A stretch of DNA of 64,000 nucleotides from Escherichia coli 042 (GTDB lineage Bacteria; Pseudomonadota; Gammaproteobacteria; Enterobacterales; Enterobacteriaceae): assembly GCF_000027125.1 (NCBI RefSeq), contig NC_017626.1, one strand, 5' to 3'. This document shows, one piece after another, positions 18,994 through 19,959 of the stretch. The notes under the pieces were generated by a model that was given only the letters and a program-made list of their open reading frames with translations, did no database searches and was not told where the DNA came from. The position numbers and the translations under genes were made by a program. Position 1 is the first letter of the stretch; each line of letters starts with the position of its first letter.

Positions 18994-19959
18994 ATGGGCA
19001 AAGCAGTCATTGCAATTCATGGCGGCGCAGGTGCAATTAGCCGCGCGCAGATGAGTCTGCAACAGGAATTACGCTACATCGAGGCGCTGTCTGCCATTGT
19101 TGAAACCGGGCAGAAAATGCTGGAAGCGGGCGAAAGTGCGCTGGATGTGGTGACGGAAGCGGTGCGTCTGCTGGAAGAGTGTCCACTGTTTAACGCCGGA
19201 ATTGGCGCTGTCTTTACGCGTGATGAAACCCATGAACTGGACGCCTGTGTGATGGATGGTAACACCCTGAAAGCCGGTGCGGTGGCGGGCGTTAGTCATC
19301 TGCGTAATCCGGTTCTTGCCGCCCGGCTGGTGATGGAGCAAAGCCCGCATGTGATGATGATTGGCGAAGGGGCAGAAAATTTTGCGTTTGCTCATGGCAT
19401 GGAGCGCGTCTCACCGGAGATTTTCTCCACGCCTTTGCGTTATGAACAACTAATGGCAGCGCGTGAGGAAGGGGCAACAGACCTCGACCATAGCGGTGCG
19501 CCACTGGATGAAAAACAGAAAATGGGCACCGTGGGTGCCGTGGCGTTGGATTTAGACGGCAATCTGGCGGCAGCCACGTCCACGGGCGGAATGACCAATA
19601 AATTACCCGGACGAGTTGGCGATAGTCCCTTAGTGGGTGCCGGATGCTACGCCAATAACGCCAGTGTGGCAGTTTCTTGTACCGGCACGGGCGAAGTCTT
19701 CATCCGCGCGCTGGCGGCATATGACATCGCCGCGTTAATGGATTACGGCGGATTAAGTCTCGCGGAAGCCTGCGAGCGGGTAGTAATGGAAAAACTCCCT
19801 GCGCTTGGCGGTAGCGGTGGCTTAATCGCTATCGACCATGAAGGGAATGTCGCGCTACCGTTTAACACCGAAGGAATGTATCGCGCCTGGGGCTACGCAG
19901 GCGATACGCCAACCACCGGTATCTACCGTGAAAAAGGGGACACCGTTGCCACACAGTGA
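18994..19959 (+). CDS. iaaA: Isoaspartyl dipeptidase / L-asparaginase (Ntn hydrolase) IaaA, 321 aa
   Basis: [21 protein letters not shown]...; autoproteolytic GT(V)GAV motif. Confidence 0.93.

Follow-up and report, generated by a model that had tools for sequence, protein, structure and literature searches.

The gsiA gene of Escherichia coli, which codes for the ATPase of the GsiABCD glutathione importer, in all likelihood starts at a TTG codon that lies inside the 3' end of the preceding gene, iaaA. We have studied this start in a stretch of 64,000 nt from E. coli 042, which we will call the window; the features around it are given in Table 1. The same start is already present in the reference annotation, so that the finding restates a known feature. 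What we add is comparative support for the start, a survey of the conflicting N-termini found in databases and a probable origin of the overlap by loss of a stop codon.

A UUG codon with its own Shine-Dalgarno (SD) sequence is the simplest reading of gsiA initiation. We propose that gsiA is translated from the UUG at 19946 and that initiation would be directed by the SD AAGGGG, which lies 6 nt upstream, within the last iaaA codons of the putative iaaA-gsiABCD transcript. Ribosomes which finish iaaA 11–13 nt downstream of the UUG would probably aid gsiA initiation, either because they reinitiate locally or because they hold the SD in an unfolded state, or through both effects, on top of SD-dependent initiation. 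The weak UUG codon may keep the output of GsiA modest. Taken as a whole (a UUG start at 19946, directed by its SD, embedded in iaaA and with a probable contribution of iaaA ribosomes) we consider this explanation very probable.

Table 1. Features of the iaaA-gsiA junction and its surroundings, in window coordinates
Feature	Position	Strand	Basis
gsiA start codon TTG	19946..19948	+	sequence; CDS start in NZ_CP033850.1 and MG1655 b0829; start codon in 21 of 21 orthologous loci
Shine-Dalgarno AAGGGG, within the iaaA coding sequence	19934..19939	+	best in-frame anti-SD duplex; AAGGAG/AAGGGG conserved in relatives
14-nt overlap: gsiA codons 1–5 with the last four sense codons and stop of iaaA	19946..19959	+	sequence, ORF list, annotation; also in E. 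albertii and three Citrobacter loci
iaaA stop TGA	19957..19959	+	sequence, ORF list
AAA (Lys314 of IaaA), where most Enterobacteriaceae have the iaaA stop TAA	19933..19935	+	junction alignment of 60+ loci; Salmonella LT2 deletion primer
36-codon upstream extension in the gsiA frame (ATG 19838 to TTG), open, non-coding in the gsiA frame	19838..19945	+	substitution pattern, poor SD, ATG absent in E. albertii
iaaA (isoaspartyl/beta-aspartyl peptidase), 321 aa	18994..19959	+	NCBIfam NF007589 equivalog 1–321/321; PDB EcAIII chains; annotation
gsiA (glutathione ABC transporter ATP-binding protein, two ABC domains), 623 aa and stop	19946..21817	+	NCBIfam NF007613 equivalog; annotation
Promoter-like site TTTACA-17-TATATT upstream of iaaA, candidate operon promoter	18887..18915	+	consensus match only

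The initiation codon can be read directly in the window. In the gsiA frame it is followed by CCA CAC AGT GAT GAA CTT GAT GCC GGT (PHSDELDAG); in the iaaA frame the 3' end of that gene is GAA AAA GGG GAC ACC GTT GCC ACA CAG TGA. The first base of the TTG is 11 nt ahead of the first base of the iaaA stop codon, and the 14 nt given by the first-pass annotation of this DNA measure the whole overlap. Bacteria have three canonical start codons, and TTG is among them. It had been described as a rare initiator, which is right in a relative sense, as ATG accounts for about 88% of the starts in E. coli (PMC9825163), and not in the sense of an unorthodox codon. The in-frame stop which precedes the gsiA frame is a TAA at 19823, and the longest ATG-initiated ORF in the mechanical ORF list (19838..21817, 659 aa) exceeds the 623-aa protein by 36 codons. 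It had been anticipated that such an ORF would lead to a wrong start; the ATG at 19838 is indeed there, and the 659-aa form is found as a misannotation in a few GenBank/IMG records.

The annotation of other genomes gives the same start. With 501 nt around the site as query, matches are obtained in 5425 of the 5426 complete E. coli genomes, and they span annotated iaaA and gsiA genes in every genome among the matches listed. In NZ_CP033850.1, a strain identical over the 501-nt stretch, PGAP places iaaA at 1795..2760 and gsiA at 2747..4618, where locus position 2747 corresponds to 19946 in the window. In K-12 MG1655 (NC_000913.3) iaaA (b0828) is found at 866568..867533 and gsiA (b0829, yliA, NP_415350.2) at 867520..869391, also with an overlap of 14 nt. 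A comparison with the curated gene had been suggested as a check, and it begins exactly at the TTG. Three divergent E. coli strains have gsiA annotated from this TTG as well. The proposal of a start inside iaaA is thus borne out by MG1655 and by PGAP, and the comparative evidence given below concurs with it. As far as the examined annotated stretches reach, MG1655 also has the same iaaA-gsiA-gsiB order. Its GsiA is 98.6% identical to that of the window; there are only allelic differences, such as D11 in the window and N11 in K-12, and nothing structural.

We have compared the anti-SD duplexes of 15 in-frame ATG, GTG, TTG and near-cognate codons, from the upstream stop to 46 codons beyond the TTG. 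The strongest one, with -7.8 kcal/mol, belongs to the TTG: its SD complementarity falls within the region 5–9 nt upstream of the codon, with a 6-nt spacer.

A genome scan provided 80 loci from Enterobacterales, Burkholderiales and other groups. For the comparison of start codons we have used the 21 loci in which the alignment of GsiA begins at residue 1. All 21 have a canonical start at the homologous codon: TTG in seven, GTG in six and ATG in eight. Such an interchange of T, G and A restricted to the first base is the signature of an initiation codon and not of a sense codon. Nine of these loci have no ATG, GTG or TTG at all between the upstream in-frame stop, which is placed 4–28 codons before, and the conserved start.

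The substitution pattern points to the same codon. We have compared the window with E. albertii, Citrobacter, Leclercia and Superficieibacter. Over the 108 nt that precede the TTG, the differences accumulate on position 2 of the gsiA frame, which is position 3 of iaaA (for example 1/16/1 by position). In the 108 nt downstream they accumulate on position 3 of gsiA (for example 7/5/15). The periodicity changes from the iaaA frame to the gsiA frame exactly at the TTG, so that the onset of coding selection on gsiA coincides with this codon. The 36-codon extension has an identity of 0.36–0.81 when translated in the gsiA frame, as compared with 0.83–0.97 in the iaaA frame. The differences between E. 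coli and Leclercia in codons 2–8 of gsiA (PHSDELD) are all synonymous.

The protein belongs to the GsiA equivalog family NF007613 of NCBIfam, with 1376.8 bits for a cut-off of 1077. The whole profile (1–623/623) aligns with residues 37–659 of the long ORF, that is to say from the TTG. Experimental work in Salmonella has made use of the homologous start: GsiA cloned from MPHSDE was reported to be purified as an active ATPase, and the same start primer served for the construction of pBAD24-gsiA, a plasmid used to complement a Salmonella deletion (PMC5485302).

Within E. coli the site is hardly variable. Of 5426 complete genomes, 5233 share with the window a 32-mer over the SD, the TTG and the iaaA stop without any change, and a 70-mer around the site is at least 97% identical in 5422 genomes. 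The variants which we inspected alter the spacer, an upstream base or codon 11; the TTG is untouched in all of them. Codon 11 (window 19976) has a common G/A polymorphism: it is GAT (Asp) in the window and in 1694 genomes, and AAT (Asn), the K-12-type allele, in MG1655 and in two variant genomes which were inspected. Most other genomes differ from the window 70-mer by 1–2 nt. With the allele of the window, the GTG at 19979 is preceded by a pseudo-SD that is slightly improved.

Our literature search found no direct experimental mapping of the gsiA start, and no experiment on the coupling of gsiA to iaaA. In INRI-seq, a cell-free method with retapamulin, the annotated gsiA TIS has 0 CPM in five replicates with the template at 151 CPM, and in vivo Ribo-RET also gives 0 at this TIS (PMC9825163, Tables S2 and S4). 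About 70% of genes were detected by INRI-seq (PMC9825163). The TRAINSPOTTER N-terminomics table (2026) goes from b0828, with the IaaA N-terminus present, to b0835, with no entry for GsiA. A Salmonella riboproteogenomics supplement has no gsiA entry either. The zeros of INRI-seq, Ribo-RET and N-terminomics are an absence of signal and not contrary evidence. INRI-seq has, in vitro, an alternative initiation peak 15 nt within iaaA, on an ATT of the same frame (Table S3; window 19008, MG1655 866582), and does not detect the annotated ATG of iaaA in vitro; the annotated IaaA N-terminus was found by N-terminomics. The annotated start of moeB also has 0 CPM in INRI-seq.

The overlap itself has a different history from the start. 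In our junction alignment of 60+ loci, iaaA ends in ...I-Y-R-E-TAA in Leclercia, Lelliottia, Enterobacter, Phytobacter, Superficieibacter, Pseudocitrobacter and Siccibacter. In these seven genera the TAA is part of the SD (TAAGGAG or TAAGGGGG), and gsiA starts 10–11 nt past the stop. The deletion primer of Salmonella LT2 has the same arrangement, GGGAATAAGGAGCCGCAG followed by the start (PMC5485302); the Salmonella junction was read from published deletion and cloning primers, as this genus is not among the 80 loci. The sequences of Escherichia (E. coli and E. albertii) and of three Citrobacter loci align with them collinearly, with AAA for TAA. With AAA in this place, the reading of iaaA continues up to the following stop of its frame, which results in a tail of eight residues and in the 14-nt overlap. 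The tail, KGDTVATQ, reaches the TGA inside gsiA codons 4–5 and is absent in the Enterobacteriaceae which stop at TAA. Other relatives have iaaA-gsiA junctions of -1 (TGATG/TAATG), -4 or -8.

Salmonella, Leclercia, Lelliottia, Superficieibacter and others therefore resemble E. coli in the position of the SD, the position of the start and the N-terminus MPHS(D/E)EL, all of them collinear. They differ by the lack of overlap (TAAGGAG-N6-start), and many of them have an ATG or GTG start. Judged from these alignments, the overlap appears to be lineage-specific, a by-product of the TAA to AAA difference and not a conserved design, and the SD and the position of the gsiA start would be ancestral in Enterobacteriaceae. 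The deposited EcAIII beta chain in PDB 2zal_B ends at residue 315, which hints that the IaaA tail is dispensable. The junction offers a natural example of a long "phase 1" overlap that may have arisen by loss of an upstream stop.

The first-pass annotation took the overlap as implying translational coupling of the two genes. This does not follow from the overlap alone: the stop-start spacing of -14 nt falls outside the range -8 to +6, gsiA has an SD of its own, so that initiation independent of iaaA is just as possible, and the overlap is lineage-specific. According to Huber et al. 2023 the range of -8 to +6 nt is indicative of efficient termination-reinitiation, with a sharp dependence on distance; -14 corresponds to the "phase 1" long overlaps (-8, -11, -14 ...), the commoner phase among long ones (PMC10666635). 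A 2025 review, citing Tian and Salis, indicates that coupling falls as the overlap grows from -4 to -25 nt (PMC12548453). We have also considered that RNA structure could sequester the SD and the start, with coupling by unfolding. This idea lacks support, as the RNA folds of 19896–19995 and 19916–19963 are no stabler than those of shuffled sequences (z -1.51 and 0.02).

Coupling to iaaA is nevertheless plausible, since a ribosome which terminates at 19957–19959 still covers the UUG and the SD. The pair shares several features with known termination-reinitiation pairs (-4 ATGA, -1 TGATG and -8; PMC6728339, PMC10666635): the genes are co-directional, probably on one transcript, and the gsiA start is within the ribosome footprint of the iaaA stop. 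It differs from them by the length of the overlap and by the UUG start, and its coupling is a predicted one. The iaaA-gsiA pair may work partly like a coupled overlapping pair; whether coupling makes a material contribution to gsiA translation is a question on which we find ourselves evenly divided.

The other possibility, that the TTG is served only by de novo initiation from its own SD and that iaaA ribosomes only occlude the site transiently, is to our judgement somewhat short of probable. A good SD at optimal spacing speaks for it, together with the -14 overlap beyond the efficient reinitiation range and the lack of any inhibitory structure which would need melting. Furthermore, the ancestral TAA-GGAG junction (+10/11 nt) corresponds to the E. 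coli "+10 nt" class, most likely independently initiated according to Huber et al. (PMC10666635). On the other hand, the isolated gsiA fragment from -30 to about +120 is silent in cell-free INRI-seq, which would fit a need for upstream translation. A weak UUG or a limited sensitivity of the assay explains this zero equally well.

Among the genera sampled, Escherichia and Citrobacter alone show the single-base difference from TAA to AAA. It seems unlikely to us that this difference changed gsiA translation, in such a way that UUG initiation depends on, or is throttled by, the ribosomes finishing iaaA, with the tail as a neutral by-product. If this were true, the passage from a +10 nt junction with the SD in the spacer to a -14 nt overlap would tie the output of the importer ATPase to the translation of the peptidase. 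The junction may be used as a test case of whether overlaps of -14 nt still couple translation.

Different start positions for gsiA are present in the databases. By exact-sequence look-up we find five N-termini among the deposits of one and the same K-12 GsiA. The 623-aa form, which starts at the TTG and carries the RefSeq name, is found in at least 1000 contigs. A form of 612 aa (GTG +33) is found in 12 contigs, including W3110 BAA35517.2; one of 659 aa (ATG -108), foreseen by the first-pass annotation, in six; one of 629 aa (GTG -18) in three and one of 601 aa (ATG +66) also in three. The presence of five N-termini in public databases indicates that start calling fails at gsiA both when it follows the longest ORF and when it is guided by paralogues. 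We have rejected as candidate starts the ATG codons at 19838, 19847 and 20012 and the GTG codons at 19928 and 19979, on SD strength, conservation and frame-specific substitutions.

The GTG at 19979 (codon 12) would give a GsiA of 612 aa, with the TTG and residues 2–11 left untranslated, as in the W3110 annotation and the other GenBank records of this length. The choice is understandable, since the profiles of paralogous ABC ATPases (YejF, OppD, DppD) align only from residues 12–13 of the 623-aa form, and the experimental TIS data favour neither codon. Against it, codon 12 behaves as an ordinary Val codon: it is GTG in 13 of the 21 loci, GTA in four, GTT in two, GTC in one and AGC in one, so that in eight of them the homologous codon is unable to initiate. 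Moreover, residues 2–8, which lie upstream of it, are conserved with synonymous changes only, its SD is poor in K-12 (-3.1 kcal/mol), and INRI-seq found no alternative gsiA TIS although its oligo includes both this GTG (+33) and the ATG at +66. We regard this start as very improbable.

A start at ATG 19838 (or 19847), which would give a GsiA of 659 (or 656) aa with its first 36 residues read from an alternative frame of iaaA, deserves hardly any credit: it begins the longest ATG-initiated ORF and has been deposited for six contigs, but the SDs are poor (-1.5 and -4.8 kcal/mol for 19838 and 19847), the extension evolves as iaaA third positions with 13–21 differences on position 2 of the gsiA frame and an identity in this frame as low as 0.36, E. 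albertii lacks the ATG, in-frame stops occur in many relatives 4–11 codons upstream of the conserved start, and only from residue 37 onwards does the long ORF match the GsiA profile. A correct start at the TTG fixes the N-terminus of GsiA for use in cloning, proteomics and structural work; beyond annotation hygiene its value is small.

The genomic context agrees with an operon. The genes iaaA, gsiA and gsiB are annotated in this order both in NZ_CP033850.1 and in MG1655, and the ORFs of gsiC and gsiD follow in the window. A homologue of iaaA lies directly upstream of gsiA in 67 of the 80 related loci. Among the loci with this linkage there are Burkholderiales (Achromobacter, Bordetella, Paraburkholderia and Variovorax) and Methylobacterium; its presence outside Enterobacteriaceae suggests that the association of the peptidase with the importer is far older than the enterobacterial operon. 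As iaaA and gsiA overlap, an intergenic terminator is not possible, and a consensus scan of the + strand detected no convincing terminator between them, only weak internal hairpins. A terminator-like hairpin at 19958–19941 is on the minus strand and has a C·A mismatch in the mRNA sense; we judge it to be a chance match. The promoter-like site upstream of iaaA is the only one found, where 1.5 are expected in shuffled sequences, and it is not significant by itself.

Some other features of the window may be mentioned. The longest-ORF rule also over-extends gsiB, with an ORF from a TTG at 21570 (+); the annotated start is at about 21837, 19 nt past the gsiA stop. The ORF list gives a GTG start to fsaA (15984, +) and a TTG start to the gene which follows gsiD (25327, +). 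No tRNA genes were found in the window, and its sole Rfam hit is the RybB sRNA (RF00110, 105 bits), on the minus strand at 41354–41432. On the same strand moeA (17555..18790) and moeB (16806..17555) overlap by 1 nt, with the moeA stop and the moeB start at window 17553–17557; this junction is TAATG in the MG1655 sequence of the TRAINSPOTTER table.
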